Shown in pieces: positions 1 through 26,853 of a DNA stretch of 64,000 nucleotides; positions within the stretch are counted from its first letter, which is position 1, and each line of letters begins with the position of its first letter. The DNA lies in the IMG/VR virus record IMGVR_UViG_3300028412_000003; one strand, 5' to 3'. The notes beneath the pieces were generated by a model. The model did not search any database. It had not been told where the DNA came from and saw only the letters and a program-made list of their open reading frames with translations. Origin of the DNA: a virus. Its lineage: Duplodnaviria > Caudoviricetes. The position numbers and the translations under genes were made by a program.

Positions 1-2
1 GT

Positions 3-653
3 GCAATCGACAGCACATGGAAGGTAGAAAACAGATGGAAGTTATATCATGTTAGTCCATATGAAGAAACTATTGTTATGGATACTGATATGCTCGTGCT
101 ACAAGACCTTACAGCGTGGTGGAATTTTTTAAGCAGTTACAGCGTGTATTTTGTAAGCAACCCCTGTACATACCGCGCACAAACGGTTACAAGCATGTAT
201 TATCGTGGGGGCTTTGTTGCTAATGACCTCGCTAATTTGTACTCAGGATTTCATTATTTTAAAAAGTGTGATCAAGCTAAATTACTTTATAAATGGATAG
301 AGTTTATAACACAAAATTGGGAAAGATTTTATGGAGAATTTCATTCTGAAAAATATCCCAATAGAGTATCAATGGATGTAACCGCAGCAATAGCAGCTAA
401 GATACTTAATATTGAAAATGAAATAATAAATTCGTTAGCAAAATATCCAACTTTTACACATATGAAACCTCATTGTCAAGACTGGCAGTTTCCTAAAGAT
501 TCGTGGCGCAAAGTTGTTGATGTTCATTTAACTCCTGAACTTGATTTGTTTATAGGTAATTTTAGACAAAGTGGAATTTTTCATTACACAGAAAAAGAAT
601 TTGTAACAGATAAAATAATTAAAATTTATGAGGATTATTTGAATGAACTTTAA
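3..653 (+). CDS. Glycosyltransferase-like protein (GT-A fold, GT8/mannosyltransferase-like), 5' truncated by window edge
   Basis: Frame is open from base 3 (AIDSTWKVENRWKLYHVSPYEETIVMDTDML); the SPYEETIV.DTD segment carries a DxD motif; C-terminal FHY motif. Confidence 0.65.
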   Translation, partial: AIDSTWKVENRWKLYHVSPYEETIVMDTDMLVLQDLTAWWNFLSSYSVYFVSNPCTYRAQTVTSMYYRGGFVANDLANLYSGFHYFKKCDQAKLLYKWIEFITQNWERFYGEFHSEKYPNRVSMDVTAAIAAKILNIENEIINSLAKYPTFTHMKPHCQDWQFPKDSWRKVVDVHLTPELDLFIGNFRQSGIFHYTEKEFVTDKIIKIYEDYLNEL

Positions 654-1254
654 GATAGGGAAATATAAATTAGAACAACGAACAATAGAACCAACTAGTT
701 TCTATGTCTATTTTGATCCTGCAAAATTAAAAATTGAGAAGATAACAAATTTACCTGCGGAAAATTATGAAGAGATTTCTTTTTTTCTAACTACACATGA
801 TGTAGTTAAAAACTTTTTAGACGGAACAAGAAAAATCGAAGATGCTAAAATTTCTTTTAATCCAGAATTAAAAGAATTTGAGATTGTAAAACTCAATCAA
901 AAAGAATTAACAGTACACGATTATATATATGAATTACTTGAGTGTGAGGATGCAGACATTTCTCTCATACTTGATTATTCTAATACATGTTGGAAGATAT
1001 TGCTAAGTGAAAGATTTATGATATCGCTTTCTCTTAATAATGTTATAATCGATTCATTGTTGCAGTTTTCGGTAACAGAAAAAGGAAATCCTAATATACT
1101 TCATAAGATGATAAAAGTTCCTTTTGACCATTTGGGATCGAATAATTATTATATTATTCCGTTTGATTCTCAATTTGAACTTGACAAAACACCGGTTTCA
1201 ATTTACACTATGAAGAAGTTTAATTCGTATTCTTTTGAGGTAATAGATGAGTAA
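643..1254 (+). CDS. Hypothetical protein
   Basis: 203-aa ORF overlapping both neighbours in the coupled operon; no motif recognised. Confidence 0.6.
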   Translation: MNFKIGKYKLEQRTIEPTSFYVYFDPAKLKIEKITNLPAENYEEISFFLTTHDVVKNFLDGTRKIEDAKISFNPELKEFEIVKLNQKELTVHDYIYELLECEDADISLILDYSNTCWKILLSERFMISLSLNNVIIDSLLQFSVTEKGNPNILHKMIKVPFDHLGSNNYYIIPFDSQFELDKTPVSIYTMKKFNSYSFEVIDE

Positions 1255-2170: not shown

Positions 2171-2171
2171 T

Positions 2172-3461
2172 ATGGAATCAAAAACATTTTGCGCAATGCC
2201 TTTTATAGGTATTATGCTCAACACAGATACATTTATACGATTTTGTTGTATAGCTTCTGGTCCAGAAGCTATACTTAGAGACGAAAATGGAAAAAAGTTA
2301 GCAGTTGGAACATCTAGTATTGAGGAAGCCTGGAACAGCGAAAGCATGGTAGAAGTAAGGCGTGCAATGATAGAGGGTAAAAAGGTTACAGCTTGTAGTC
2401 ATTGTTATAAGCAAGAAGATATTGGCAAAACAAGTTTTCGTGAAATGATGACAAACGAATGGAAGCATCGTTTAGGCGAATCATTTTATGATTATGTGCA
2501 AGAAGCTGTCGAAAATGATATGAAGATTAAATTGCCTCCTGTATATTTAGATTTGCGACTAGGTAACCTTTGTAATTTAAAATGTCGTATGTGTAATCCA
2601 TTTAATAGTAGCCAAATTGCTAAAGAACATTTTCCTTTGTATGAACAAGATGAAGGATATAAATCCGTTTGGACTTCTGAATTTGGAAATAATCCAATAC
2701 ATTTAAAAGAAGAAGAAGTTGTTTTTGATAGTAATTTTTTATGGAATGAAATTATAGGAATGATACCTAAGCTTCAAAAAGTTTATATGACAGGTGGAGA
2801 ACCTACTCTTATTAAGAACAATTACAGATTTATGGAAGAGTGTGTTGCAGCAGGATATAACGATCAAATAGAATTATTCTTTAACATCAATTGCACTAAC
2901 GTAACTGATAAATTTCTTGACTTAGTTTCAAAATTTAAAAGTATAAAGATTAATTGCAGTATTGACGGTATAGGATCAGTAAATGATTATATTAGATCTC
3001 CTAGTAATTGGAACAAAGTTGATACTAATTTTAGAAAATTAGCATCCTTGTCTAATGTAAGACTTGGAATGAGTCCAGTAATTCAAGTCTATAATATCTT
3101 AGATTGTCATAACATACTTGAGTATGCTAATCAAGTATCAAAAGAATATAATAAATCTATTAGTGTTGATTTTTTGATAAATGATCATCCAACATATTTA
3201 GATGTAACTATTATACCTTTAGAAATACGAAAAAAAGGAATAGAAAACCTTTTAGCCTTTAAACAACAGAATAAAATTGAAGACCATATAACACAAAATA
3301 GTATAAATGGAATAGTAAATTTATTTGGAAGACCATTGAGAGATAATCACAAAGAGATTTATCAAAATTTTATAACTATGACAAAAGCATTAGACAAATC
3401 AAGGAAAGAAAATTTTACTAATTCTATACCAGATCTAGCAAAGGAGTTAAATTTTGAATAA
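2172..3461 (+). CDS. Radical SAM protein with N-terminal SPASM/twitch-like Cys domain
   Basis: CNLKCRMC, MTGGEP; N-terminal FCAMPF..CC..CSHC. Confidence 0.9.
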   Translation: MESKTFCAMPFIGIMLNTDTFIRFCCIASGPEAILRDENGKKLAVGTSSIEEAWNSESMVEVRRAMIEGKKVTACSHCYKQEDIGKTSFREMMTNEWKHRLGESFYDYVQEAVENDMKIKLPPVYLDLRLGNLCNLKCRMCNPFNSSQIAKEHFPLYEQDEGYKSVWTSEFGNNPIHLKEEEVVFDSNFLWNEIIGMIPKLQKVYMTGGEPTLIKNNYRFMEECVAAGYNDQIELFFNINCTNVTDKFLDLVSKFKSIKINCSIDGIGSVNDYIRSPSNWNKVDTNFRKLASLSNVRLGMSPVIQVYNILDCHNILEYANQVSKEYNKSISVDFLINDHPTYLDVTIIPLEIRKKGIENLLAFKQQNKIEDHITQNSINGIVNLFGRPLRDNHKEIYQNFITMTKALDKSRKENFTNSIPDLAKELNFE

Positions 3462-4707
3462 CTCAAAAACTTTTTGCGTTCTACCTTGGACACATATGGC
3501 AACATGGACAGATGGTAGCGCCTTACTTTGTTGTGTAGCAAAGAATAGTCATAAGTTAAATCTTAATGATAACACTGTTTCTGAAATCTGGAATAGTGAT
3601 CATTTTAAAGAAGCCCGTGTTAAGATGTTAAACGGAGAAAAAGTTTCAGCATGTGAATCTTGTTACAAGGAAGAAGCAGTTGGAATTAGAAGCCATCGTA
3701 TAAATGAAAATAATCTATGGATTAAAAAATTAGGGCAAGAAAAGATTGATAGTCTAATTGAAGCAACCGACGTTGACGGAACGTTAAATGAAGATTTAGT
3801 TACGTTAGATTTTAGATTAGGTAATACCTGTAATTTACAATGTGTGATGTGCCGTCCTCAAGATAGCAGTATGTGGTTAAACAATGCTAAAAAACTAAAG
3901 GATATACTTGAAACTGAAGCTAAATGGGATTGGCAACACAAAGCAGACATTGATACAACAAGATTTGATTGGTATAAAAATGAAAAATTATGGGCTGATT
4001 TTAACGGTATGTTTTCTAATATACGCCACATTATATTTGCCGGCGGAGAACCATTATTAATTAAAGAACATCTTCGATTAATAAAAAAATTAGTTGAATC
4101 AGGGCATAGTAAAAATATTGAATTACGTTATCACACAAATGGAACTACATTAACTGAAGAAATAATAGATCTTTGGAAAGAATTTAAGTTTGTTGAATTG
4201 ATGGTAAGTATTGATGCATGGGGAAAACATCATGATTATGTTAGATATCCGGCAGACTGGCAGCAAATAATAACTAATCTAAATAGATTAGATAATACAC
4301 CAGATAATATCGATGTTAAGATTTTAGCAACCATACATGCTATGAATATATATTATATTCCGGATTTTGCAACTGAGTTACTTAAACAGGATTTTAAGAA
4401 GATAGGAAAGTTGCATCATGAAGGGTTGTTTCACGCAGGAACCGTACACTGGCCTCGTTATCTTAATATACAAATCTTCCCACAGTGTATTAAACATAAA
4501 ATAAGAGAAAAATGGGAAAGTTATATCGAGTTAAATAAAAATTACCAATGGACTAGTAAAATTAAAAGTCAATTAGAATTTATGGATTCTGAAGATCATT
4601 CAGATTTGTTCCTTCAATATATTGATTATATTGACAAACTTGACAAAATAAGGCATACAGATTTTAGTAAAGTTTTTCCAGAATTTAAGGATATATTAGA
4701 TGGATGA
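3454..4707 (+). CDS. Radical SAM protein with N-terminal SPASM/twitch-like domain
   Basis: CNLQCVMC, FAGGEP; FCVLPW..CC..CESC. Confidence 0.9.
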   Translation: MNNSKTFCVLPWTHMATWTDGSALLCCVAKNSHKLNLNDNTVSEIWNSDHFKEARVKMLNGEKVSACESCYKEEAVGIRSHRINENNLWIKKLGQEKIDSLIEATDVDGTLNEDLVTLDFRLGNTCNLQCVMCRPQDSSMWLNNAKKLKDILETEAKWDWQHKADIDTTRFDWYKNEKLWADFNGMFSNIRHIIFAGGEPLLIKEHLRLIKKLVESGHSKNIELRYHTNGTTLTEEIIDLWKEFKFVELMVSIDAWGKHHDYVRYPADWQQIITNLNRLDNTPDNIDVKILATIHAMNIYYIPDFATELLKQDFKKIGKLHHEGLFHAGTVHWPRYLNIQIFPQCIKHKIREKWESYIELNKNYQWTSKIKSQLEFMDSEDHSDLFLQYIDYIDKLDKIRHTDFSKVFPEFKDILDG

Positions 4708-6067
4708 ATTAGATAAGTTAAGAAGAGATATATTAGAGAGTGAAACATTCTGTTTTTATCCGTTTCTTGAAGTAAGCACAAGACCAAATGGAGTAGTTTT
4801 TCCATGTTGTTATTGGAATGAAAATGATCATTTATCTTTAGAAAAAAGATTAGATGATAAAAATTCTCTTGATACATTCTGGAACAACAAAAAAGTAATT
4901 GATACTAGAAATAAAATATCAAACGGAACTAAAGTTAAGGGTTGTAAAATATGTTATAGAGATGGTGCATCTAGCATGAGGGCTAGAAGTATAAAGGAGC
5001 ATATAAATGATAGAGATAAATTACAGATAGTAAAAGATACTTTAAACAATGAAGGTGTAGCAAAACATTCACCAAAAAAGATAGAACTTAAACCAAGCAA
5101 TCTTTGTAATTTGAAATGTCTAATTTGCAATGCTTATGATTCTTCTCAGATTGAAAAAGAGTTGTCAGACTTAGATGAAAAGTTTAATGGAATTAAAACA
5201 ATAGGTGGAACATTCTCAAGAATAGTAGGAAATCAGTCTGGTGTGTGGGAAGGTAATGTAGGACAATATGTTTTGAATGCTAATTCTAAATCTAAATGGG
5301 CAGAGTCAGATCGATTCTGGGAAGAATTAAAGATATTGCTACCAAAGATAGAAGTTTTAAGTTTTGCAGGAGGCGAACCAACTCTTAATCCTATAGTCAA
5401 TAAAATACTAACCTATTGTGTTGAAACAAAAATATCTAAAAATATCACCGTTTTTATCAGTAGTAATTTTACCAATCTTAATCCTAAATTTCTTTCAAAT
5501 ATGAATAACTTTAAAAAGTTTGAATTAATTGCTAGTATAGATGGTACAGAAAAGGTACAAGAATATACACGGTTTCCTTCTAATTGGAATAAAATAAAAG
5601 AAAACTTTGAAGAAGCTAAGACCTATATGCAAGGCACGGAAATTAAGATATTAACGAATATAACGGTAAGCATAATGAATATATTTCAATTACATGATTT
5701 GTTTTGGTATATTGATGAACAAAGTAGTAAACATCCTTATTACAACGAATGGCCATTTAATATTAATTTAATTAATTTTCCGGAACAGCAACGCATATCG
5801 ATTATACCTCCGGAATTTAGACAAGAGATAATTGATAATCTTAATCATTATCTTGAAAATGGAGATATCATTAAATTCTTTCCTGATTTAAAGATTAAAA
5901 TTGAAATGTTAATACATGAATTAAATAATGAATGGGACAAAGAAGATTCCGTTTTCCAATTAACTAAATTAAAAACTATGTTGGTTACTTTAGATGAGCA
6001 TAGAAAAGTGTCCTATAAGGATGCAATACCAAAACTAGATGAAATATTTAAGGAATACGTAAAATGA
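4700..6067 (+). CDS. Radical SAM protein with N-terminal SPASM/twitch-like domain
   Basis: CNLKCLIC, FAGGEP; FCFYPF..CC..CKIC. Confidence 0.9.
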   Translation: MDELDKLRRDILESETFCFYPFLEVSTRPNGVVFPCCYWNENDHLSLEKRLDDKNSLDTFWNNKKVIDTRNKISNGTKVKGCKICYRDGASSMRARSIKEHINDRDKLQIVKDTLNNEGVAKHSPKKIELKPSNLCNLKCLICNAYDSSQIEKELSDLDEKFNGIKTIGGTFSRIVGNQSGVWEGNVGQYVLNANSKSKWAESDRFWEELKILLPKIEVLSFAGGEPTLNPIVNKILTYCVETKISKNITVFISSNFTNLNPKFLSNMNNFKKFELIASIDGTEKVQEYTRFPSNWNKIKENFEEAKTYMQGTEIKILTNITVSIMNIFQLHDLFWYIDEQSSKHPYYNEWPFNINLINFPEQQRISIIPPEFRQEIIDNLNHYLENGDIIKFFPDLKIKIEMLIHELNNEWDKEDSVFQLTKLKTMLVTLDEHRKVSYKDAIPKLDEIFKEYVK

Positions 6068-7047
6068 AAAAACCAGTAACATTAAGTGGAATTGAATATA
6101 CAAAGATTGAGAATAGATCAAATAGTTTGTATCTTACATGGGTGATGAATAATATCTGTACTAATAGTTGTTCTTATTGTCCTGAAGATTTACACACTGG
6201 AAAAAATCATCATTATGAATGGAATCATGCTAAAAAGTTTCTGAAAGATTGCTTCGATCGTTATGGTAAAGTGCAATGTAGCATCTCCGGCGGCGAACCA
6301 ACAGTTAGTCCTTTTTTTAAAGAAATAGTAGATCTTATATACGACAATGGTGGATTGGTAGTATTAACTACCAATTTTGCAAGGTCTGTTTCGTGGTGGA
6401 AAGATGTGGCCCCAAAGATCAGTAGTTTATCATGTAGCTATCATCCAGAGTTTATGCCCACAAAAGAATTTGACGACAGTCTAATTGAGAAAATAACAGA
6501 AGCAGCGAAGGTAACTTGTGTTACGGTTCGAGTGATGATGCATCCAGATTATTGGGATCAATGTATGAATTTTTTTAAACGTATACAAGATTCCGGTATA
6601 GAATGTTCTGCAGAAATTGTCCGTATATTGGACAATTTTGGAATAGGAGAGGCTTTTTGTGTTATTAATTACACCGAAGAACAAGAACGCATCTTACGTG
6701 AAGTAAAACCCTACATAAATTGGCCAAATAACCTTCCGGATACATATCGACATAATGTACTGAATTCTTATTTGATTTCAGAAACTAACGAAATAATGTT
6801 AGATTTCCCGATAGCGTCGGAAATATCTAATACTATGAATAATGACTTTAATGGTTGGAATTGTAAAATTGGACTGGAAAGTCTATTTGTGCATTATGAT
6901 GGAAATGTGCAAAGGGGCAACTGTGGAGTAGGAGGTCATCTTGGCAATATTACCACCAAAATAAACTGGCCGACTGAAAGTATTATCTGTAATAAAACAG
7001 TTTGTCATTGTTTAGCAGACGTATTGATGTCAAAGGAGATAACATGA
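6064..7047 (+). CDS. Radical SAM protein with C-terminal Cys-rich (SPASM/twitch-like) domain
   Basis: CTNSCSYC, ISGGEP; C-terminal WNCKIG..GNC..CNKTVCHC. Confidence 0.9.
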   Translation: MKKPVTLSGIEYTKIENRSNSLYLTWVMNNICTNSCSYCPEDLHTGKNHHYEWNHAKKFLKDCFDRYGKVQCSISGGEPTVSPFFKEIVDLIYDNGGLVVLTTNFARSVSWWKDVAPKISSLSCSYHPEFMPTKEFDDSLIEKITEAAKVTCVTVRVMMHPDYWDQCMNFFKRIQDSGIECSAEIVRILDNFGIGEAFCVINYTEEQERILREVKPYINWPNNLPDTYRHNVLNSYLISETNEIMLDFPIASEISNTMNNDFNGWNCKIGLESLFVHYDGNVQRGNCGVGGHLGNITTKINWPTESIICNKTVCHCLADVLMSKEIT

Positions 7048-7805
7048 CAAAAATATTATTAGTTGCTGGATGTAGTCATTCTAATGGCTCCGAAATAACA
7101 GCACCGGGATCTCATAGAGATCCTAATGATTTAGAAAGATGTTTTGGAAATAAAATTGCACAACGGAATAACATGACAATGGTAAACATTGCATATGCCG
7201 GAGCATCAAATAAATTAATTGAATCTAGTATAGTAAAGAATCTCAATAAGCTAATATCAGAAGGACATAAATCAGAAGATATCATAGTGTTAATTGGATG
7301 GACTAGTCATCCGAGAGAATATGTGGTAGAGAACGGAAAGTATTACGGATTTACTCTTAATCAACATAACATGTCATCGTGGAAAAGATTTGCAACTTTA
7401 AATCTTAGGAAGTTTTATAAAGTATGGTTGAGGTTTGTAAATTATGAATTATTGTCGATTGAACATGTTATTCGACATTTAACAATAACCGGATACCTTA
7501 AGAATAAAGGTATAAAATATTATGCTTTTAACGCAGTTGACAGAATAGTTCCGCCGGCAAACGAATTTGATCCTATTAATTTTTTTAATAATTACAAAAT
7601 AGACGAAGTAGGATATAACGAAATAGAAAAAGATATTTATTATAGAAAACCTTTTTCTTATAATGATTCTTATTTCCAAACTTTAATGCTTGATTATAAA
7701 TTAGATCCAACGGATAATAACCGTTGGTATCATTATGCGGAAAATGGTCATGAGATATGGGCAACCATATTAGAAAAAGAAATGAAGTTACTTGGATTAT
7801 TATGA
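7044..7805 (+). CDS. SGNH/GDSL hydrolase-like protein
   Basis: LVAGCSHSNG nucleophile-like block, NIAYAGASN block, C-terminal HY..NGH; start moved to the ATG at 7044 (GGAG RBS, ATGA overlap). Confidence 0.55.
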   Translation: MTKILLVAGCSHSNGSEITAPGSHRDPNDLERCFGNKIAQRNNMTMVNIAYAGASNKLIESSIVKNLNKLISEGHKSEDIIVLIGWTSHPREYVVENGKYYGFTLNQHNMSSWKRFATLNLRKFYKVWLRFVNYELLSIEHVIRHLTITGYLKNKGIKYYAFNAVDRIVPPANEFDPINFFNNYKIDEVGYNEIEKDIYYRKPFSYNDSYFQTLMLDYKLDPTDNNRWYHYAENGHEIWATILEKEMKLLGLL

Positions 7806-8578
7806 TGAAAATAAAATCATCTTTTTCTAATATAAAATTAAATGATTTAAAAGATCTAACAACACCGGGTCTAAAAAATACTAGACCTGTATTTCTAGGA
7901 AGGTGGGAAGAACATGCAACTACTATTGATAAAAAATGGACTTATTATATAAATGAAATAGGATTTAGAAATTCTTGGCCGGAAAAAATGAAAGATCATA
8001 TTGTTGGAATATATGGATGTAGTAATATCTTTGGTGTTGGAGTTCCAGACGACCTTGTTTGTACTTCTCTATTACAAGAGAAATTTCCCGAAAAAACATT
8101 ATTAAACTTTGGAGTAATGGGCGCTTCTGTCTCGCATATAGCTAGGATATTTCTTATATCTAGTCAACTATTTAAAATTAAAACGGCATTTTTTAGTCTT
8201 CCTAGTATATATAGGATTCTAATGGTAAATGAAGCTGGATATTATAATCTACATCCGGGAACTAATTCCTTAAACAAAGATGGATTAGAAAAAAGAAGAA
8301 AACAATACTATCAATCGATAAACGAAGAAACCTTATTAATGAATTATTTAGACATAGTGGATCATATTATATTAATTGGAAAAGAATTTGGAATTAGGAT
8401 ATATTTTAGTTCATACGAAGAAATAGTACACAAAATATTAATAGAAAATTATAATGACAGTTATATAACAAAACCGATGTATAATAGTAGAAAGGCTACA
8501 GATAATAATCATCCTTGTTATCTTTGTCATAAGGATTATGCAACGATAATTGAAAAGAAATTATTAACTAATGTATGA
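7802..8578 (+). CDS. SGNH/GDSL hydrolase-like protein
   Basis: GIYGCSNIFGVGV, NFGVMGAS, DNNHP (DxxH); start moved to 7802. Confidence 0.6.
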   Translation: MMKIKSSFSNIKLNDLKDLTTPGLKNTRPVFLGRWEEHATTIDKKWTYYINEIGFRNSWPEKMKDHIVGIYGCSNIFGVGVPDDLVCTSLLQEKFPEKTLLNFGVMGASVSHIARIFLISSQLFKIKTAFFSLPSIYRILMVNEAGYYNLHPGTNSLNKDGLEKRRKQYYQSINEETLLMNYLDIVDHIILIGKEFGIRIYFSSYEEIVHKILIENYNDSYITKPMYNSRKATDNNHPCYLCHKDYATIIEKKLLTNV

Positions 8579-11321: not shown

Positions 11322-11329
11322 GTATTAAT

Positions 11330-18504: not shown

Positions 18505-19570
18505 TTTTACAAAGATCCCGTTTGAAGATATAGTACGGCTTGGGCAACGCACTATGATACACCGTGACCTTTTTACAGTGAGTTGGTTACTTGGTCGTTT
18601 TTGTAATTATCGTTGTTCATATTGTTGGCCGTATGCCAGGAGTGATCGAAAAGATCACCGTCCTACAGAACTCTGTTTAACAACAATAGATGAGATTAAA
18701 CGACAAGCTAGAAACAATGGATTTAATTCTTTTCATTTTAGTTTTAGTGGAGGTGAACCAACCTTTCATCCGGGTTATTTAGATATATTAAAATACCTAG
18801 CAGATGATGTTTCTAATACAAACGGAACAACAATTCATATGACATCAAATTGTTCTCGTAATATGAAATGGTTTGAGGAATATACAGAAACAGCAAAGTC
18901 TTTTCAGCGTGCTAGTATCACAGCAAGTTTACACACCGAACATGTTAATACTCCGGAAAAGATGCAAGACTTTGCAGACAAATTGATATTTGCTCAAGAA
19001 CAAGATATACAAGTAACTATCAATATGGTAATGGTACCAGAATGGTTTGAACAATCATGGGAAAACGCATTATTCTTTCACAATCAAAATATCAATGTTA
19101 CACTTAAACCACAAAGCGATCCGACCGCATCTCGTATAGTAGATGGATATACAGATGACATGCTTGATAAACTTCATAACGGAATGCCTCAAGAAAATTT
19201 TACAACAATAAAGAGTAAATTTTACAATCGTCCTAAACAGAAAATCTCTATCCCTCAAGACGTTCCTTCTAATATGCAAGTAGAAATGGAAGATTCTAAT
19301 GGAAAGAAATGGTATATAGATCAAGCAGAAAGATTTAATGCTTTTAATTTTAACAAATTTGAAGGCTGGAGTTGTAATGCAGGATATCAGGGTATCATAA
19401 TAAGAGAACCGGATGGTAGTGTTAAGCGTTCATATTCATGTAAAGATCAACCATTAGGTAATATCAAAACAGGATTTAAAATATTTGATACACCTATGCC
19501 GTGTATTACACCGACTTGTGTTTCAAGTGCAGATAGCAAAATACCAAAGAAGAAGAAGAAGAAGATATGA
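18494..19570 (+). CDS. Radical SAM protein with C-terminal Cys-rich domain
   Basis: CNYRCSYC, FSGGEP; WSCNAG..YSC..CITPTC; start moved to the ATG at 18494 (AAGGA RBS). Confidence 0.9.
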   Translation: MSYDFTKIPFEDIVRLGQRTMIHRDLFTVSWLLGRFCNYRCSYCWPYARSDRKDHRPTELCLTTIDEIKRQARNNGFNSFHFSFSGGEPTFHPGYLDILKYLADDVSNTNGTTIHMTSNCSRNMKWFEEYTETAKSFQRASITASLHTEHVNTPEKMQDFADKLIFAQEQDIQVTINMVMVPEWFEQSWENALFFHNQNINVTLKPQSDPTASRIVDGYTDDMLDKLHNGMPQENFTTIKSKFYNRPKQKISIPQDVPSNMQVEMEDSNGKKWYIDQAERFNAFNFNKFEGWSCNAGYQGIIIREPDGSVKRSYSCKDQPLGNIKTGFKIFDTPMPCITPTCVSSADSKIPKKKKKKI

Positions 19571-20427
19571 TTATAAATGTAAACGAAGTACCTCAAGATA
19601 AAGAAATACTTAGTTTTATAAAGAAACAATTACCAGGAAACGAAGAGGATAGAGTTGGTCCTTTTATTTTTGAAGAGTTAGATGTTTGTGAACTCGGAGT
19701 TAAAACGTCTAATCTTTTAACTTCAGTTGAACAGATTGAAAGATTACATGGGCTTGAAGGATGGCAAAAACAACACGGATATTCAACTCCGCATTATAGA
19801 GGGTTTTCATTAACTTACAACAAGGAGTTTAATGATAAAAGCAGGAGCCAATATCATCAAACTTTTGGATCTAAATTTATAAAAGATTCCTTCTCTCGAG
19901 AAGCGTCTGGAGTAGTTACTATGAAAAATACATATTATGATACATATGCTTTCCGACATTTAAATTCAACAATAAAAGAACATTTTAGCGGGTTATTTTC
20001 TCGCATAAAAGGGGCAATATTACGAAGTCGTGTTGCGTATTTATATTCCGGAGAAATTGACTTAAATACATTTAAAGGAGGATGGCATATAGATGAACCT
20101 CAGTATATGATGTTGAGGTTAGTTATACCCCTTAAGACAAATGAAAATTATTATTTAAGATTTGATGGAGATGATAATCTAGGTAATCAAGCATCGTTTG
20201 ATAAGATACTCGAATACGACAAAGCATACATCTGGAATAACCGTATTCCACATGAGGTTGGGTGTTATAAAAGTGATCCACTTACAGACCCCCGGATTAA
20301 TATGATTGTTGGGTTTTCTCCGTGGTTTGACTACGATGAAGAAAATGATAGATTCGTTTCAAATAGTAATTTTGGAATACCAGTTTCTAGAATAATAAAG
20401 GATAGGTTATTTTTAAATGACAGCTGA
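19567..20427 (+). CDS. 2OG-Fe(II)/cupin oxygenase, Asp/Asn beta-hydroxylase-like
   Basis: WHID (HxD)...RLVIPL...IPHEV distal His. Confidence 0.6.
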   Translation: MIINVNEVPQDKEILSFIKKQLPGNEEDRVGPFIFEELDVCELGVKTSNLLTSVEQIERLHGLEGWQKQHGYSTPHYRGFSLTYNKEFNDKSRSQYHQTFGSKFIKDSFSREASGVVTMKNTYYDTYAFRHLNSTIKEHFSGLFSRIKGAILRSRVAYLYSGEIDLNTFKGGWHIDEPQYMMLRLVIPLKTNENYYLRFDGDDNLGNQASFDKILEYDKAYIWNNRIPHEVGCYKSDPLTDPRINMIVGFSPWFDYDEENDRFVSNSNFGIPVSRIIKDRLFLNDS

Positions 20428-21136
20428 CACAAAAATTAAGTTATTAGCTATACTGAATCACCTACTCTTTATAGGAGGAGTAGTATATTCATTTTCATGG
20501 ACAGGATTATTATATGGATTTATCATTTACTTGTTAATAGTCACGATTGGAACAAGCATTGGCTATCATAGGTATTACACTCACAAATCATTTAATACCA
20601 ATAAGACATGGGAATTAATTTTCCTTTTCTTCGGAAGCATAGCTTTTTTAGGTCCAGTTATAGCTTGGTCTGGAATACATCGTATACATCATGCTAAGTC
20701 TGATACAAATGAAGATCCACACAGTCCTTTGAATGGGTTTTTTAACACCTGGTTCCATATATTTCCTAATAAGAACATATCACCGAAGTACATAGCAGAT
20801 CTTATAAAAGATCCATGGCTAAAGTTCCAACACAAATGGTATTTTTGCATGGTCACGATTTATTTGGTGTTAGGATATCTAGCAATCGGACATTGGGCAG
20901 TTTATATAATCTCAATGCCAGCTGTGTTGATGTATCATGTAACTGGATTTATCAATAGCGTTAACCATATGATAGGAGAACAAAAATCAAAACATGATCG
21001 ATCAACTAATATTCCTATCTTATCTTTAGTTACTGGAGGAGAATCTTATCATTCTAATCATCATGTGCGTCCAGGAAGTTCGGTTTTTGGTAAGTACGAT
21101 ATAGCTAAGATTTTTTTACCGTGGATTATAAAATGA
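20417..21136 (+). CDS. Membrane fatty-acid (delta-9-like) desaturase
   Basis: Three His boxes HRYYTH, HRIHH, HSNHH; DPHSP; hydrophobic TM segments. Confidence 0.85.
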   Translation: MTADTKIKLLAILNHLLFIGGVVYSFSWTGLLYGFIIYLLIVTIGTSIGYHRYYTHKSFNTNKTWELIFLFFGSIAFLGPVIAWSGIHRIHHAKSDTNEDPHSPLNGFFNTWFHIFPNKNISPKYIADLIKDPWLKFQHKWYFCMVTIYLVLGYLAIGHWAVYIISMPAVLMYHVTGFINSVNHMIGEQKSKHDRSTNIPILSLVTGGESYHSNHHVRPGSSVFGKYDIAKIFLPWIIK

Positions 21137-22020
21137 ATTATTATGAACTTGAACCAGAAGAAAATACATTTAAAACACTTGTAGTGGACATTACTCATAA
21201 GTGTAATATGGAATGTGCCAATTGTTATATTCCAAATAGAGATATTCCAGATATGGATCTAGATCGTCTTTATGATCTAGCGAAGAGGCTACCTCGGCGC
21301 ACAGAGTTTCGATTGATGGGAGGAGAACCGACTATGCACAAAGATCTACCAGACATAATTTCTACTCTCCGCACGCTAGGTCACAGGCCTACAATACTTA
21401 CTAACGGACTCAGGCTAGGCAATTTAGACTACTGTAAGACGCTTAAAAACGCGGGCTTGCACAGTTTAAACATAAGTCTCAACGGCGCTGATGACGACAA
21501 CATCTATGTTATAACAGATGAACTTAAATGTGCAGAACGTAAAATGAAAGCATTAAGGAATGTCGTTTCTTTAAATATGTTCATCAATATCAATTGTATC
21601 ATACAAAAAGGCGTAAGTGAACCCGTGCCTGGACGGTTAATTGATATATTCCAAAATGAGTTAAACTATCCCGGTGTATTACGATTCCGCAATGTTGGAC
21701 AGATTGGCCGGTTTTCTTTAGGAAAAGAAGACAATTATACCTTTGATGAATTGATAGAGTTCATGGGTAAAGTTACTGGAAAAGATCCTGATTGGATACG
21801 TCAATGGAAACAAGTTGAAGGTTACGACGAAGAACACAACGTACTCTTTCCATTAGATGAAACAAAGAAGAGATCGACCCAGTGGATTAAAATTACGGAT
21901 TGGAGCCCTTCTTTATCTGATATTCCTGATCCAAATAGTATTAGGAGAGGAAGGATCACTCAAGATTTTAAGCTGGCACCTTTCTTTGAGCACGTTAAGG
22001 AAAACGAATTTGGATACTAA
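21133..22020 (+). CDS. Radical SAM protein (MoaA-like core, no SPASM)
   Basis: CNMECANC, LMGGEP, LTNG, ISLNG; start at 21133 by ATGA overlap. Confidence 0.85.
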   Translation: MNYYELEPEENTFKTLVVDITHKCNMECANCYIPNRDIPDMDLDRLYDLAKRLPRRTEFRLMGGEPTMHKDLPDIISTLRTLGHRPTILTNGLRLGNLDYCKTLKNAGLHSLNISLNGADDDNIYVITDELKCAERKMKALRNVVSLNMFININCIIQKGVSEPVPGRLIDIFQNELNYPGVLRFRNVGQIGRFSLGKEDNYTFDELIEFMGKVTGKDPDWIRQWKQVEGYDEEHNVLFPLDETKKRSTQWIKITDWSPSLSDIPDPNSIRRGRITQDFKLAPFFEHVKENEFGY

Positions 22021-22645
22021 TTTTAAGAAATATAGAGGAAAGGTGATACTAGCCATAAGCTATTTTTCTTTTGTTATAGGATTTTTTTTCTATAATTGGA
22101 TGTGGATATTTCCTGCGATAGTAGCTGGGTATCTCAGTGTAGCGATCAGTCATTATATTTTGCATTTACATTTTGGCCACAAGACATATAAAGACACCAT
22201 ACAAAATAAATTATTGAGTTTAAGTTGCTTGTTTACTGGGATCGGCACTCCTCTCGAATACGCACTGATACACCGACAGCATCACAAATATAGTGATAAA
22301 AAAGGTGATCCACATTCTCCTGTGCTTGAAGGATTTTGGAACGTGTTATTCTTAAAGATGAATTCAACTAAAATGGAACTTAATTTGATTAGAGATTTCA
22401 TCAAGAGTGAATTCCAACGGAAATTAAATTTACATTTTTTTAAGATATGGATTCTAATTTTTCTTTCAGTATTGATAATTTATCCTCCTGTGGCTTTGTT
22501 TATTATCGCACCAATGTGTATACATGCAACTACGTCAGCTCAACTAATAACAGCGTGTTGTCATAGTAATGGATACGCTGAAAATGTCCCATGGATAGCA
22601 ATTATCAATCCATGGGCGTGGAATCATGGAGATCATCATGAATGA
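22010..22645 (+). CDS. Second membrane desaturase-like protein (short or degenerate)
   Basis: HLHFGH, HRQHH, DPHSP, ends NHGDHHE; probable TTG start at 22010 with AAGGA RBS. Confidence 0.7.
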   Translation: MDTNFKKYRGKVILAISYFSFVIGFFFYNWMWIFPAIVAGYLSVAISHYILHLHFGHKTYKDTIQNKLLSLSCLFTGIGTPLEYALIHRQHHKYSDKKGDPHSPVLEGFWNVLFLKMNSTKMELNLIRDFIKSEFQRKLNLHFFKIWILIFLSVLIIYPPVALFIIAPMCIHATTSAQLITACCHSNGYAENVPWIAIINPWAWNHGDHHE

Positions 22646-23390
22646 TACAATTAAACCAGATCTTAATAAATGGTATGAGCCTTATACAAGTTGGAAAATT
22701 CCAACTAAAAATTGGGCAAAACTAAACGAAAAATATAGTTTTGATCTTGATCTTATGAGATCAAATATAATAGACATAATGCAAAATTATGAACTTAAAC
22801 CGTTTCCTAGTTTCGCTGCGGGACGTTGGGGCCACAACGAGAAAACTAGATTTGATTATAATGGCATTGGGCTTACTTGTAGAGAGGATGCCACAGATCC
22901 TCTCTACGATGCCTTAAATACTTTTAATAGAAGAGAAGTAAAAGACAAGAAATATACAGAAAACGGAATAGTTAATACGTTAACATATGAACGCAATTTT
23001 ACTCAGCGTACTGATGCTTGCACTCCGTATCTAAGTGAGATATTAGATAGATTCAGTTCAACTATGTGTAAAGCCCGTATATTAGAACTTAAACCCGGAG
23101 GGATAATATTTCCACATGTAGATTTTCCTTATTATGAACAAGTGAGATTACATGCACCGATATTCTCAAATGAAGAAACTTTTTGGGAGGTGAATGGTGA
23201 AAGATTTCAGATACCAGAAGATGGAAATTTTTATTGGTTTGACACCGGCAAATATCATTCAGTTGTAAACAAAGGAACCAACCCAAGGATTATGCTATCT
23301 GTAAATTTGTCTATCTACAAAGATAGAAATGATAATTTAATTAACACAGAAGAAAATATAGATGAAATTATAATATCGGATAAAATATAA
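22638..23390 (+). CDS. Asp/Asn beta-hydroxylase-like 2OG-Fe(II) oxygenase (tandem copy 1)
   Basis: KARILELKPGGIIFPHVD, RLHAPI, YHSVVN, PRIML. Confidence 0.8.
   Translation: MNDTIKPDLNKWYEPYTSWKIPTKNWAKLNEKYSFDLDLMRSNIIDIMQNYELKPFPSFAAGRWGHNEKTRFDYNGIGLTCREDATDPLYDALNTFNRREVKDKKYTENGIVNTLTYERNFTQRTDACTPYLSEILDRFSSTMCKARILELKPGGIIFPHVDFPYYEQVRLHAPIFSNEETFWEVNGERFQIPEDGNFYWFDTGKYHSVVNKGTNPRIMLSVNLSIYKDRNDNLINTEENIDEIIISDKI
22998..23277 (+). repeat. 280-bp perfect direct repeat, copy 1
   Basis: Base-by-base identical to 23777-24056 (offset 779). Confidence 0.95.
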
Positions 23391-24169
23391 TGAGTATAGA
23401 TAAATTTGACACTTCAACAAAGGACATAGGCGATTACAATAATTGGTATCAACCACACACTAAATGGAAAATTCCAGATAGAAATTGGTGTAAGACCCAT
23501 AAGAAATTTAGCTTTGATTTAGATCGTATTCGAGAAGATGTATTGGAAATAAAAGAAACTTTTGGATTTAAAGGATTTCCAATAAAAGGAAAAAAACGTA
23601 GATGGGCATATCAAGGTATTGGATTAACTACACGTCCAGAAGCATCAGATCCTTTGTATGATGCGTTACATACTTATAATAAAGATGACGAAGTTTGTAT
23701 TGATAAGTTTTTTGTTGATCAAGCAACATATGTAAAAGAAGATGAAAAATATGCTCGTTATACCTACGAAAAAAACTTTACTCAGCGTACTGATGCTTGC
23801 ACTCCGTATCTAAGTGAGATATTAGATAGATTCAGTTCAACTATGTGTAAAGCCCGTATATTAGAACTTAAACCCGGAGGGATAATATTTCCACATGTAG
23901 ATTTTCCTTATTATGAACAAGTGAGATTACATGCACCGATATTCTCAAATGAAGAAACTTTTTGGGAGGTGAATGGTGAAAGATTTCAGATACCAGAAGA
24001 TGGAAATTTTTATTGGTTTGACACCGGCAAATATCATTCAGTTGTAAACAAAGGAAAAGAGAGTCGTTTTGTTTTAAGTATAAACCTTTCTTTGTATTAT
24101 GACAAAGACGAAAACCCAACTAATCATGAGATAGATATAGATGAATTCCTTTCTTCAGACAGATTATAA
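23390..24169 (+). CDS. Asp/Asn beta-hydroxylase-like 2OG-Fe(II) oxygenase (tandem copy 2)
   Basis: Same catalytic core as copy 1, with divergent N- and C-termini. Confidence 0.8.
   Translation: MSIDKFDTSTKDIGDYNNWYQPHTKWKIPDRNWCKTHKKFSFDLDRIREDVLEIKETFGFKGFPIKGKKRRWAYQGIGLTTRPEASDPLYDALHTYNKDDEVCIDKFFVDQATYVKEDEKYARYTYEKNFTQRTDACTPYLSEILDRFSSTMCKARILELKPGGIIFPHVDFPYYEQVRLHAPIFSNEETFWEVNGERFQIPEDGNFYWFDTGKYHSVVNKGKESRFVLSINLSLYYDKDENPTNHEIDIDEFLSSDRL
23777..24056 (+). repeat. 280-bp perfect direct repeat, copy 2
   Basis: Identical to 22998-23277. Confidence 0.95.
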
Positions 24170-24788
24170 AACTATTGATATAAAAAAAGATGATAATTGG
24201 AGAGAGATCTTTGAAAATTACCGCAATGAAATTTTACAAGCAGATGATGCATTAATAAGGAATTATGCTAAAGACAGGCTTAAAGTTGATGACCATTCTG
24301 GCTTCTTTATCACAATAAATAATTCTTTGGATATTGTTGCTTTCTATGGTGTCTATAAAAGAGACTGGTGGCCCGAAGGATTTTTTAGGATAGGAAATAG
24401 GACTTGGGTTGATCCTCGTTATCGTTCAAAATCTGCAAGGCATCACACAGGATATCCTTTTAGGTTAGGATGGTTATTTACACATGGGCATGATCCTATG
24501 ATTGAATGCTGTAAAGAAAACGGTGGTCTGATTGCGTTTGCATCAAAAGAAAATACCGGACGTAAAAAGAATGTGTTTGTTTATACCGCAGGAATAGAAT
24601 TACCAAAATTAAGACCAGAATGGAGTTTACTTGATGGATACTATAATGTAGTTGGAGTAAACGATACTAAAGATTGCTGGCAGAAAATAACATATAGACA
24701 ACTAACAAATAATGATATTTCCTTTGTTGGATTTGATCATATAAGCGACGAAGAATTTGAAGAGAGATTTATTAATGAAAGTATATAA
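24141..24788 (+). CDS. Hypothetical protein, possible GNAT-like fold
   Basis: IVAFYGV..RIGNRTWVDPRYR resembles GNAT motif A; weak match, start uncertain. Confidence 0.4.
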   Translation: MNSFLQTDYKTIDIKKDDNWREIFENYRNEILQADDALIRNYAKDRLKVDDHSGFFITINNSLDIVAFYGVYKRDWWPEGFFRIGNRTWVDPRYRSKSARHHTGYPFRLGWLFTHGHDPMIECCKENGGLIAFASKENTGRKKNVFVYTAGIELPKLRPEWSLLDGYYNVVGVNDTKDCWQKITYRQLTNNDISFVGFDHISDEEFEERFINESI

Positions 24789-25629
24789 TGAAAATTTTGC
24801 AGGATTAGATTATAAGTCTTGGGAATTTGAACAAGTTGGATTAAAAGGTGTTGGAACAAATCACATTCCTATTTTAGGAATGGACAAATACATAGACACT
24901 TCTATGAACGAAGAATTACATGCTGAATGTAGCATTGGATTAGCGTTATGTAACACAATGAAAATGGGAGGATTTTCTGGATCGATTCCTCCTTTTGAAC
25001 AAGAAAAATATGATGGGTTGAACACATGGACTGAGTTGTTAAGAGAAATAGAAAAGTATGATCCAACTGGTTTCCATACAAAGAACATTGAGGAAATATT
25101 AAGGCGTACTAGTAAGAACAACGTTAAAGCGGTTTATCGTTATGTGTATTTTGCAATGGGTGCTCCAATTCCGTGGTTCTTTGCTGTGTATCTTTTAAAT
25201 AATAGCTTTGGTAATAAGACAAATGAAAGTAAAGATTATACCGAAGATGCAAAATATTTTCCTAAGTTAATTGAGTATATAAACAGTTTACCTTTTAAAC
25301 AAATTGGAAGGATACTTTTCTTTACAACATTTCCACATGCTGAAGTAGTGACACACAGAGATGGTCCTATGATAGCACACCGGGATCATAACATAAATCT
25401 ATTCTTTGTTGAATCACGTAAATCATTTGTGTGGAATGATACCGCCAACGAACGGCATTACCTAGACCTTGACCAAAGAAGTTATTTTTTTAATAATAGA
25501 GATTACCATGGTGTAGAAGCAGAAAAAAAGTTCCGTTACACTTTGCGAGTAGACGGAACTTTTGAAGATTGGTTACAAGAGGATTTAGGACTTGTAGATG
25601 GATACACTTGGCATCCATCTTATGACTGA
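24775..25629 (+). CDS. Hypothetical cupin/2OG-Fe(II)-like oxygenase
   Basis: THRD (HxD) and FFNNRDYHGV distal His; last gene of the + strand island. Confidence 0.5.
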   Translation: MKVYNENFAGLDYKSWEFEQVGLKGVGTNHIPILGMDKYIDTSMNEELHAECSIGLALCNTMKMGGFSGSIPPFEQEKYDGLNTWTELLREIEKYDPTGFHTKNIEEILRRTSKNNVKAVYRYVYFAMGAPIPWFFAVYLLNNSFGNKTNESKDYTEDAKYFPKLIEYINSLPFKQIGRILFFTTFPHAEVVTHRDGPMIAHRDHNINLFFVESRKSFVWNDTANERHYLDLDQRSYFFNNRDYHGVEAEKKFRYTLRVDGTFEDWLQEDLGLVDGYTWHPSYD

Positions 25630-26853
25630 TTATGCAGCAGTACCATCGTCTAAGTTAATCCATGCACTGTTTTGATAACCATTAAATCTATTAGTTGTGG
25701 TGTTATAAACTATCATGCCGTTTGCAGCAGCTATTTCATCTCTTGTAGTTGTAGTATAAGAACCAAACTGTATGTATCCTCCTGATGTTATCGTATTATT
25801 AATTGCATCAATCATTATAGTTGAATCATCCGAAACAAGCGATCCACGGAAAGAAGCAGCATCAATTGTTCCGGAGATTATAGCATCCCCTACAATTTCA
25901 AGTCCTGCTTGCGGATTTACAGTACCCCATCCGATACCTGTATTGGTGATATTGAAAGTTTCTTCGGCTACTACGATTCCGTCGTTAGTAACAGAAAATA
26001 ACATACGTTCGTTACCACCAAGTATTAATGAAGTAGTTACATTATTAACGTCATCTTCTCTTTCAAAGTAGATAGCACCATAATATGCACCAATTCCTGA
26101 AATGTCACCGGTTGACTGTCTTGATAATTTAAGAATACTTCGATTGTCGTCTGATAAGATTCTTAATTCAGAACGAGCTTGGTCAGTTAATATCGTAATT
26201 TCGTTTGTTGATTTTATTTTTTCTGTGTAAACAGTTCTTTGATTAGCATCGTAAAATACAGTACTATCACCAGTTAGTATTCTAGAGACAGTTATGTTTC
26301 CGGTTACCATGTCTCCGGATGTAACATCAACCATTGCTCCAATATTTGGAGAGTTAACGTTACCATTCAACTCCCCAAACACATTGCCTGTTAGGTCACC
26401 TGTAAAAGTTCCAACACCTGCATTAACTAAGATAGTACTTCCGTCTGCTGATATAACATTACCAAATAAATTTCCAGTAATATCACCAAATAAATCGCCA
26501 ATTATAGTATTAGTAGTAGTATCAACTATAACGCTGCTATCGTCTCCAACTATATTAATTCTATAGTTTGATCCTTCAACAACACCCGAGCTTGTTGCGG
26601 TTTCTTCGGCAGGTATCCAATTAGAACCATCCCATTTTAATACCCATCCTGTAACAGGTGATATACTCTGGGTGTCTACATCTTGTAATGAATTAATACT
26701 TTGAAGTGAGTTAGCATCAACTGGAATTCCTCCTGCAGTGGTGCCATCACCAACATAGAGATTTTTTGTATCTGATGTATAATAAGGCTCACCCGCAGCC
26801 AGCGTAATAATTTGCCTTTCTGCATCGGTGCCTCTTCTTAAGCGTAGCGCCAT
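25630..26853 (-). CDS. Tail fibre/virion structural protein (Mtd_N-like N-terminus)
   Basis: MALRLRRGT..GEPYYTSDTKNLYVGDG..GG N-terminus, G-D/N-rich repeats (GDLFGDITGNLFGNV), C-terminal GMIVYNTTTNRFNGY. Confidence 0.65.
   Translation of the reverse strand: MALRLRRGTDAERQIITLAAGEPYYTSDTKNLYVGDGTTAGGIPVDANSLQSINSLQDVDTQSISPVTGWVLKWDGSNWIPAEETATSSGVVEGSNYRINIVGDDSSVIVDTTTNTIIGDLFGDITGNLFGNVISADGSTILVNAGVGTFTGDLTGNVFGELNGNVNSPNIGAMVDVTSGDMVTGNITVSRILTGDSTVFYDANQRTVYTEKIKSTNEITILTDQARSELRILSDDNRSILKLSRQSTGDISGIGAYYGAIYFEREDDVNNVTTSLILGGNERMLFSVTNDGIVVAEETFNITNTGIGWGTVNPQAGLEIVGDAIISGTIDAASFRGSLVSDDSTIMIDAINNTITSGGYIQFGSYTTTTRDEIAAANGMIVYNTTTNRFNGYQNSAWINLDDGTAA

Follow-up and report, generated by a model that had tools for sequence, protein, structure and literature searches.

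What would a bacteriophage build with thirteen radical S-adenosylmethionine (radical SAM) enzymes encoded in one operon with its tail fibres? Apart from those of nucleotide and queuosine chemistry, such enzymes are seldom found in phages. The question is raised by the virus record IMGVR_UViG_3300028412_000003, of which a stretch of 64,000 nucleotides (nt), hereafter the window, was analysed; the contig carrying it is 228 kb long. The left part of the window, up to base 25629, is an island of biosynthetic genes, and its remainder is T4-related phage DNA by PHROG and protein matches. The family B DNA polymerase (PolB) is 43-50% identical to those of Sinorhizobium phage Phosso, Atu_ph07, Vibrio phage 2.275.O and Rak2-like jumbo phages, and by this sequence likeness the source of the island is a jumbo T4-related phage. 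The evidence presented here partly supports a conserved sugar-type tailoring island in a fibre operon, uncharacterised wherever it occurs. As an explanation we tentatively favour, at a likelihood somewhat short of even, fibre-linked glycan assembly followed by radical editing, with the enzymes co-expressed with the fibres and a fibre as the likeliest acceptor.

The island displays a compact architecture. Between base 3 and base 25629 lie 28 open reading frames (ORFs), all on the + strand and designated below by their start coordinates. With junctions computed from the longest-ORF starts, 25 of the 27 overlap and two abut, the largest gap being 8 nt. The single-strand run of overlapping or abutting genes that a preliminary description, made from the letters of this DNA, had drawn as far as base 25629 is therefore confirmed. 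Its start at base 1, in contrast, does not hold, since the co-directional run extends at least 4.2 kb upstream of the window, where it takes in a second GT8-like gene and reaches a fibre gene, as seen in a locus of the same phage (L008). The upstream order in L008 is fibre gene, 296-amino-acid (aa) ORF, 115-aa ORF and first GT8-like gene, all of which abut or overlap, and the C-terminus of the fibre protein matches the Peptidase_G2 intramolecular-chaperone (IMC) domain. At the other end lies a fibre-like or receptor-binding protein gene (25630-26853), with an Mtd_N domain (PF18454, E 6e-10, above the cut-off) and a weak match to a PHROG tail fibre (E 4e-4). The island thus ends beside a fibre-like gene as had been described, but that gene is on the - strand and convergent. 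Because a fibre gene lies upstream and the Mtd_N fibre-like gene at the opposite end, the enzyme block is embedded in a fibre module. Transmembrane (TM)-like segments are confined to two desaturases, the remaining island proteins having none, and no transporter, flippase or polymerase families were detected in the island. An Mtd-type target of a diversity-generating retroelement (DGR) was also considered for 25630-26853 and rejected within the window: the gene displays the Mtd_N domain only, and no template/variable (TR/VR) repeat pair was found there.

This arrangement recurs in other phages. An alignment-based scan of IMG/VR identified at least 552 stretches encoding relatives (a single-protein scan with 14758 gave no matches), and the gene-content counts given here rest on 80 fetched loci. 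Gene order and one-to-one orthology are kept in the loci L004, L011, L021 and L046/L052/L053. On the 190-kb contig behind L052, which comes from another sample, the run is kept at 26-68% identity in the order fibre gene, 310-aa ORF, Laminin_G_3 fibre paralogue, 115-aa ORF, GT8, GT8, 195-aa ORF, GT2 and radical SAM, and the island is larger through the addition of B12-radical SAM, TauD and 2-oxoglutarate (2OG) oxygenase genes. The order fibre/GT8/GT8/GT2/radical SAM is found in at least 10 of the 80 loci. In L110 (338 kb) both island flanks match those of the window, on the fibre side and on the side of 27214 and 28396-HNH, with only about five radical SAM genes between them. Together with the 190-kb contig, L110 shows the island to be widespread in samples from estuaries and lakes. 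Accessory content also varies: of the 80 loci, 16 have the GT8 pair, 13 a carbamoyltransferase and about 10 an amidinotransferase. Because order and flanks are conserved and content varies, the island occupies a site that is fixed within the fibre module of a phage lineage yet able to expand, and is no chance assembly of auxiliary genes. The conserved order and orthology thus uphold the earlier view of a biosynthetic or tailoring cluster distinct from scattered auxiliary genes. The uniqueness it implied, however, is lost, given the 552 or more viral stretches, orthologues in Bdellovibrionota, a T4-like genome with 12 such genes published in 2017 and an existing NCBIfam name. Two loci filed as metagenome-assembled genomes (MAGs) of Gammaproteobacteria (L011, NZGL01000008.1) and Rickettsiales (L021, NZHE01000012.1) contain the phage-type cluster at 52-78% identity, with about 15 radical SAM genes in L021, and are probably misbinned phage DNA. 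No fibre homologues adjoining the cluster were found in these two contigs.

The glycosyltransferases lie closest to the fibre genes. ORF 3-653 encodes the C-terminal 216 aa of a 278-aa GT8-like protein of the GT-A class whose start lies upstream of the window; the full gene is L008:3384-4220 and its paralogue directly upstream is 27% identical. The profile of this 278-aa family (A3) matches the GT8 enzyme glycogenin (E 7e-7) and, weakly, NleB. Both glycogenin and NleB are protein-glycosylating enzymes, glycogenin being protein-glucosylating. Residues P81, D91, D187 and H256 are invariant in the family, and within its DTD (DxD-like) motif only the first Asp (D91) is invariant. The GT2-like protein 1247-2170 is a GT-A paralogue of 8571 (33% identity), and its orthologue in L052 is 68% identical, those in at least 15 IMG/VR loci being 45-50% identical and always placed right after the GT8 pair. 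The second GT2-like enzyme, 8571-9596, was modelled with AlphaFold2 (AF2; pLDDT 91) and comprises an extra N-terminal alpha/beta domain followed by a GT2/GT-A fold at residues 115-340, in which D171xD173 is invariant. Foldseek matched the fold at probability 1.0 to K4CP, SunS, WrtF, RmlT, ppGalNAcT, RfbN and PgaC, and the peptide S-glycosyltransferases SunS/ThuS and mimivirus R699 are also among its fold matches; its family profile gave no match to solved structures. Fold and conserved DxD support the placement of the island transferases in GT-A (GT2, GT8), and the three GT-A enzymes first proposed for the window stand, 8571 by its fold model, 1247 as its paralogue and 3-653 by the glycogenin profile match. 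The 8571 family numbers 1392 representative clusters and is often repeated within giant proteins, the nearest Atlas clusters being almost all viral. Its GT2-like domain occurs in tandem, in up to 15 matched stretches, within single proteins of 1300-2160 aa (P0121-P0123, P0171).

All 13 radical SAM ORFs are recognized by both Pfam and NCBIfam, and the CX3CX2C motif is intact in every one, as the preliminary count had it. Seven of them, at 283-418 bits, pass the curated cut-off of 170 bits (whole-protein score) of the NCBIfam model NF033640 (N_Twi_rSAM), and an eighth (13679) scores 150. These eight N-terminal-twitch (N-twitch) enzymes display a C-x17-CC-x(28-63)-CxxC motif that precedes the radical SAM core; in the Pfam assignments SPASM falls within residues 5-96 and Radical_SAM follows it, an order permuted relative to BtrN, anSME or MoaA. 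The seven proteins above the cut-off share with NF033640 this succession of N-terminal auxiliary-cluster motif and CX3CX2C. The family is, however, a named sequence model only, outside which five of the island enzymes fall, and no literature assigning it a substrate or function was found. The five other members comprise three short proteins with a C-terminal Cys cluster, one unpermuted enzyme and one MoaA-like enzyme. Paralogues in the window are 22-33% identical among themselves and positional orthologues in other aquatic contigs 42-78%. The enzymes are old and separately conserved, and therefore each probably catalyses one distinct step.

The N-twitch enzymes differ in how closely they resemble their relatives. 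Radical SAM 1 (2172-3461; 360 bits) bears the C-x17-CC...CxxC motif at its N-terminus and CX3CX2C at residue 134, and groups in the tree with five tandem copies of the Bdellovibrionales chromosome locus L036. Radical SAM 2 (3454-4707; 401 bits) is sister to the orthogroup of radical SAM 6 (11330-12718; 418 bits). The latter is the best-conserved member, with identities of 78% to its L004 counterpart and of 54-57% to those of Bdellovibrionales, and with 100% clade support. Radical SAM 3 (4700-6067; 283 bits) and radical SAM 8 (13679-14761; 150 bits) are divergent, the former on a long tree branch and the latter sharing 33% identity with the orthologue that occupies its position in L004. In radical SAM 9 (14758-15936; 341 bits) SPASM spans residues 5-67 (E 1e-15), and the model (pLDDT 83) displays a small N-terminal domain followed by a partial TIM barrel; orthologues are 56% (L004) and 42-45% (L007) identical, among 525 homologues at E<=1e-5. 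Radical SAM 10 (15923-17194; 375 bits) is 48-49% identical to two L007 copies and 42% to L004, and radical SAM 11 (17365-18504) scores 312 bits. Between these two lies a 64-aa ORF (17181-17375) in which, by BLAST, the start of a twitch domain is fused to a radical SAM tail: it matches the N-termini of 14758 and 13679 and the C-terminus of 17365. This in-frame ORF, which gene calling also returned in L002 and L003, is accompanied by a 71-nt repeat (17322-17392 = 18448-18518) and looks, from its sequence, as if a duplication and then an internal deletion had left it behind.

The short members with a C-terminal Cys cluster are radical SAM 4 (6064-7047; Pfam E 3e-8), whose STM4011- and viperin-like matches are weak and all under the cut-off, radical SAM 7 (12715-13686; 63% in L004, 53% in L007) and radical SAM 12 (18461-19570; 76% in L004, 59-62% in Bdellovibrionales), a family present in about 38 of the 80 loci. 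Radical SAM 5 (10257-11321) is unpermuted and forms a separate orthogroup, with orthologues at 70% identity in L004 and 41% in Bdellovibrionales. Its twitch-like cysteines (C255, CC274-275, C338 and C342) lie at the C-terminus. Because this C...CC...CxxxC arrangement is C-terminal in 10257 and its counterpart N-terminal in eight neighbours, permuted and unpermuted forms stand side by side in one operon. Radical SAM 13 (21121-22020; Pfam E 3e-18) displays a MoaA/TrsS/Tes-like core and no twitch, its NCBIfam matches to TrsS (5e-24), MoaA (5e-21) and Tes (1e-14) all lying far under the cut-offs. When the twitch part was compared with the sequences of solved structures the sugar dehydrogenase BtrN was the best match (E 8e-4). 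The best fold matches of the N-twitch model are CteB and SkfB, followed by anSME, SuiB and ChlB, with BlsE, DesII and SpeY also present.

The wider distribution of these enzymes extends to predatory bacteria. Bdellovibrionota MAGs account for almost all the non-viral relatives of 14758. Each of four Bdellovibrionales genomes encodes roughly 11-22 proteins that pass the NF033640 cut-off, largely in tandem arrays, versus none in 14 control genomes. Orthologues of 9577, 10257, 11330, 14758, 15923 and 18461 (34-62% identity) stand together in the Bdellovibrionales loci L012/L039/L028/L016, and that of 12715 (53%) is found in L007, a 2-Mb contig. In a FastTree tree of 111 proteins each window paralogue falls in its own orthogroup, and most orthogroups mix phage and bacterial members, several at 97% local support or more; because the tree has long branches, only well-supported orthogroups were used. 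Since these interleave phage and bacterial members, the enzyme set is old and has moved as a set. The bacterial clusters also encode a carbamoyltransferase (E 5e-69), an amidinotransferase whose family (A6) matches the inosamine-type StrB1/HsvA at E 1e-57, Glycos_transf_2, an arylsulfotransferase, a membrane SGNH-like protein and a 740-aa AspH-like protein that is found in phage loci as well. In L012 a KdoO-like hydroxylase scores 26.8 bits against a cut-off of 25. No homologues of the fibre, the GT8 pair or 1247/8571 were found in the bacterial loci read. The likeness goes part of the way towards a wholesale match to a known bacterial pathway, which the preliminary description had held up as fatal to its proposal. 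However, only seven of the 28 genes are shared, the carbamoyltransferase, amidinotransferase and KdoO-like genes are not seen in the window, and the bacterial cluster is itself uncharacterised. In a 403-kb bacterial contig a lone N-twitch radical SAM gene (L045:10001-11254) and a nitroreductase gene separate the beta-subunit gene from the epsilon-subunit gene within an operon for the F-type ATP synthase.

The remaining island genes encode further tailoring enzymes and unassigned proteins, nine island ORFs having no match to Pfam (E<=5) or PHROGs. The methyltransferase 9577-10257 displays a class I SAM-dependent fold (Atlas structure match, TM score 0.66-0.78), as first described, with orthologues at 49% identity in phage L004 and 38-42% in Bdellovibrionales (L028, L039), and is present in about 40 of the 80 loci. 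Of the two SGNH-like proteins proposed earlier, 7002-7805 (likely start ATG 7044) is moderately supported as an esterase or acyltransferase by its match to DUF6071 (E 5e-5), a viral family overlapping Lipase_GDSL, and by its Atlas structural neighbours in DUF6071, Lipase_GDSL and SGNH clusters (TM score 0.77-0.84). The other, 7757-8578, displays motifs alone (GCSN ... NFGVMGAS) and has homologues at 24-28% identity in 7 IMG/VR loci. Both desaturases stand. The first, 20417-21136 (PF00487, E 1e-16), is a membrane His-box enzyme with a delta-9-like HRYYTHKSF box, four TM-like segments and a homologue (29%) at the equivalent position in L004. The second, 21857-22645 (PF00487, E 2e-9; four TM-like segments), probably starts near 22010-22043 and is called at 200 and 211 aa in L001 and L002.

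The four proposed cupin/2OG oxygenases are of unequal standing. Two of them, 22626-23390 and 23390-24169, are firm AspH/LpxO-like Fe(II)/2OG hydroxylases of the Asp_Arg_Hydrox family (PF05118; E 7e-12 and 4e-12, respectively), tandem paralogues 63% identical to each other. A 295-nt block, 98% identical between 22983-23277 and 23762-24056, suggests from its letters a recent gene conversion over their metal-binding core. Against the LpxO family they score 21-22 bits versus a cut-off of 500, and at curated thresholds none of the KdoO, Waa and Lpx families is matched in the window. The third, 19567-20427, is a distant paralogue recovered by BLAST to 22626 and 23390 (E 1e-4), with no library match. 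The fourth, 24757-25629, is a cupin-like protein with an invariant HxD...H motif (H200, D202 and H251 in the family alignment, A4), a Pfam AspH match at only E 0.11 and no match of its family profile to solved structures (PDB); the family is present in about 25-30 of the 80 loci. The 203-aa protein 643-1254 matches neither Pfam nor PHROG and has a positional homologue in L052 (26% identity). The 215-aa protein 24141-24788, the candidate for the GNAT-like protein first proposed, has no library match and no homologue in any fetched locus, and the profile of a 320-aa family (A5) likewise gave no match to solved structures.

How might such enzymes act together? The island could be the enzyme half of a tail-fibre operon, a cytoplasmic pathway that would assemble a short glycan and then edit it; a sugar as substrate, a fibre as acceptor and all of the chemistry are what we infer. 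Four GT-A transferases, two GT8-like (one upstream, one spanning base 1) and two GT2-like (1247 and 8571), would lay down the glycan from host nucleotide sugars, and the acceptor would most likely be the fibre or receptor-binding proteins encoded immediately upstream. The methyltransferase, the SGNH-like proteins, the AspH-like and cupin hydroxylases and the thirteen radical SAM enzymes would modify individual positions. By analogy with BtrN, SpeY, DesII and BlsE, the radical SAM steps may begin with abstraction of a hydrogen atom at a carbon of the sugar, after which oxidation, deamination/dehydration or decarboxylation would ensue. Sugar-modifying radical SAM enzymes also catalyse epimerisation and C-C bond formation, which are further candidate steps here. 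The sub-block of desaturase, MoaA-like radical SAM and AspH-like genes (20417-24169) may act on an acyl substituent. The pathway is read as sugar-centred because of the four GT-A enzymes, the methyl-, carbamoyl- and amidinotransferases and SGNH proteins across the family, the BtrN match and the BlsE, DesII and SpeY folds. Thus, the glycan-type product proposed in the preliminary description is partly supported, the carbohydrate and glycoconjugate accessory enzymes here and in relatives speaking for it. The fibre is proposed as acceptor because of the unbroken, translationally coupled packing with fibre genes, the conserved linkage, the soluble enzymes, the lack of detected export genes and the glycogenin/NleB matches; soluble enzymes lacking a recognised transporter, flippase or polymerase fit cytoplasmic protein modification before assembly. 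A more specific version, in which a dozen separately conserved permuted-twitch radical SAM enzymes edit sugars already on receptor-binding proteins and so give the fibres a coat of unusual chemistry that can diversify rapidly, through a toolkit common with Bdellovibrio-like predators, is possible and on balance rather doubtful. If true, it would open a new branch of carbohydrate chemistry by radical SAM enzymes and a new viral way to vary or protect the adsorption apparatus.

The closest known systems each share a part of this design. Chloroviruses and mimivirus encode their own glycan machinery. In mycobacteriophages virion glycosylation, with capsid and tail-tube glycans, is established (Freeman 2023, as cited in PMC12619734). 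The island resembles the viral virion-glycosylation systems in its soluble GT-A enzymes and methyltransferase beside structural genes, in its lack of detected export machinery and in the succession GT8, GT8, GT2 directly after fibre genes, which is found here and in at least 11 other contigs and is the kind of linkage by which virion glycosylation is judged. It differs in its thirteen radical SAM enzymes, of which those systems are not known to have any, and virion attachment is putative here. With BtrN and SpeY, sugar enzymes that belong to pathways of the aminoglycoside type, and also with DesII and BlsE, the island shares a twitch domain with a single auxiliary cluster and, in related clusters, an amidinotransferase; the island twitch, in contrast, is N-terminal in eight enzymes and the similarity is at superfamily level only. 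A T4-like marine genome, TARA_ERS488813_N000010, was reported with 12 radical SAM genes (Nishimura 2017, PMC5332604) and, by that gene count, is a T4-like aquatic phage with a similar dozen. The report counts them only as Fe-S proteins, however, and discusses no cluster structure, fibre linkage or function (PMC5332604). No characterised counterpart pathway was found for the island, and the earlier statement that no characterised phage pathway has this enzyme set agrees with our searches, in which none appeared.

Several of these features could also serve a different acceptor. GT8 is a family of lipopolysaccharide (LPS) core transferases, and the AspH/LpxO-like hydroxylases and membrane acyl desaturases of the island, the KdoO-like hydroxylase and carbamoyltransferase of the orthologous Bdellovibrionales cluster and the small kinase-like protein encoded in L004 would all suit remodelling of the host envelope. 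A lipid A-core or glycolipid would be edited at the cytoplasmic face of the inner membrane and exported by the host, changing the surface that fibres recognise. The TM-free topology is compatible with this because Waa-type enzymes also lack TM segments, and the Gram-negative Bdellovibrionota could apply the same set to their own LPS. We consider such remodelling unlikely, as we do its proposed benefit, whether superinfection exclusion or progeny kept from sticking to debris, to about the same degree. The LpxO match (21 bits against 500) and the lack of KdoO, Waa and Lpx families in the window count against it, to our knowledge no radical SAM enzyme acts on LPS, and it is weakened because packing in a fibre operon suggests late expression, late for a cell near lysis. 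A diffusible product, a free aminocyclitol-, aminosugar- or nucleoside-like metabolite used in infection or predation and bound to no macromolecule, would fit the twitch domain being most like BtrN, the SpeY, DesII and BlsE folds, the inosamine-type amidinotransferase and carbamoyltransferase of relatives and the presence of the system in two kinds of predator of Gram-negative cells. In the T4-like cyanophage S-SCSM2R an AHBA_syn-like gene (ORF305), a radical SAM gene (ORF306) and an amidinotransferase gene (ORF309) lie close together and were read by the authors as antibiotic synthesis genes (PMC12801897). This possibility is nevertheless quite remote in our estimate: the libraries recognised no aminocyclitol core enzyme (cyclitol synthase, aminotransferase or amidinotransferase) and no nucleotidyl-sugar enzyme in the window, no exporter or resistance gene was detected, and four glycosyltransferases with a constant fibre linkage are unexpected for a diffusible product.

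The fold matches alone would place the radical SAM enzymes as readily in peptide maturation. CteB and SkfB lead the list ahead of anSME, SuiB and ChlB, SunS/ThuS appear among the GT2 matches, and the Asp_Arg_Hydrox family acts by definition on protein Asp/Asn, so that cross-linking, epimerisation or other side-chain edits of a fibre or another protein by SPASM/twitch enzymes, AspH hydroxylation and subsequent addition of sugars would together resemble the maturation of a ribosomally synthesised and post-translationally modified peptide (RiPP). A peptide substrate is disfavoured because no precursor ORF fits and the largest gap is 8 nt, the sole small ORF (17181-17375) being a radical SAM remnant. 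Neither the radical SAM enzymes nor other island proteins display an RRE/PqqD-like domain detectable with Pfam or NCBIfam, and the amidino- and carbamoyltransferases, SGNH proteins and desaturases of the wider family are atypical of RiPP clusters; this explanation is improbable. The T-even glucosyltransferases and the thymidine-hypermodifying phages decorate DNA bases, and a similar hypermodification of phage DNA or nucleotides would accord with all-cytoplasmic enzymes, with a QueE-like gene 8 kb from the island and with the distant members in KVP40 that lie beside QueC-like and GT-B genes. It appears very improbable, however, as the island sits in a fibre operon on the strand opposite to the replication and deazaguanine genes, the roughly 11-22 copies in arrays are on bacterial chromosomes, and desaturases and AspH-like enzymes have no known role in DNA.

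Fibre-linked glycan assembly, the reading that we favour, has to accommodate a number of observations that weigh against it. The radical SAM fold and profile matches are generic, fitting peptide maturases as readily as sugar enzymes, and the membrane desaturases and LpxO/KdoO-like hydroxylases point, by their family likeness, to a lipid or LPS. In many IMG/VR loci the 10 kb around the cluster showed no homologue of a fibre gene. Near the Bdellovibrionota clusters fibre genes were likewise not detected, and the bacterial acceptor is no phage fibre. The cultured Vibrio phage KVP40 (L134, 127-146 kb) encodes three distant family members (22% identity) that adjoin NadV, a QueC-like gene, a PF04095 protein and a GT-B gene and no fibres; because of the low identity and the different context, KVP40 is a poor proxy for the island. 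Expression timing gains no support, since no RNA runs containing window DNA were found, and no promoter motif is enriched in the window.

The island nevertheless unites thirteen radical SAM genes and fibre genes in one operon, in a system that predatory bacteria and at least 552 viral stretches also encode and for no member of which a known substrate was found. Virus-encoded glycan machinery as such is already known, and the island offers a substantial chance of new chemistry. If the product decorates fibres, aquatic jumbo phages would join the few mycobacteriophages and the giant viruses in which virions are glycosylated, and radical tailoring would form an added layer in the biology of host range and immune evasion. 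If it is instead a host-envelope or small-molecule product, it would represent a new takeover function common to phages and bacterial predators. Whichever holds, new chemistry can be sought among more than ten members of the N-terminal-twitch family that are distinct from one another and individually conserved.

The remainder of the window provides the setting. It is AT-rich, with a GC content of 0.29-0.36 inside the island and 0.33-0.39 downstream, and the GC skew changes sign at about 26 kb, at the strand switch 25629/25630, beyond which almost all genes up to 64000 are on the - strand. Window DNA is present in four lake-water DNA runs, which belong to three or four studies. The whole window contains a single copy of the T4 late promoter TATAAATA versus 12 expected from shuffles, this octamer being markedly avoided despite the AT-rich genome. 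A 15-nt candidate promoter element gave 9 matches at up to 3 mismatches versus 10.5 expected, and sigma-70-like sites and terminators are at chance level. The downstream genes encode, besides an HNH endonuclease and an exonuclease, a QueE-like radical SAM enzyme on the - strand (33933-34814 and neighbours; PHROG E 3e-48), which by homology points to a 7-deazaguanine chemistry apart from the island. In the replication-side block lies the gene of a 749-aa ATP-dependent Lon-like protease (49670-51919; PHROG E 5e-249).

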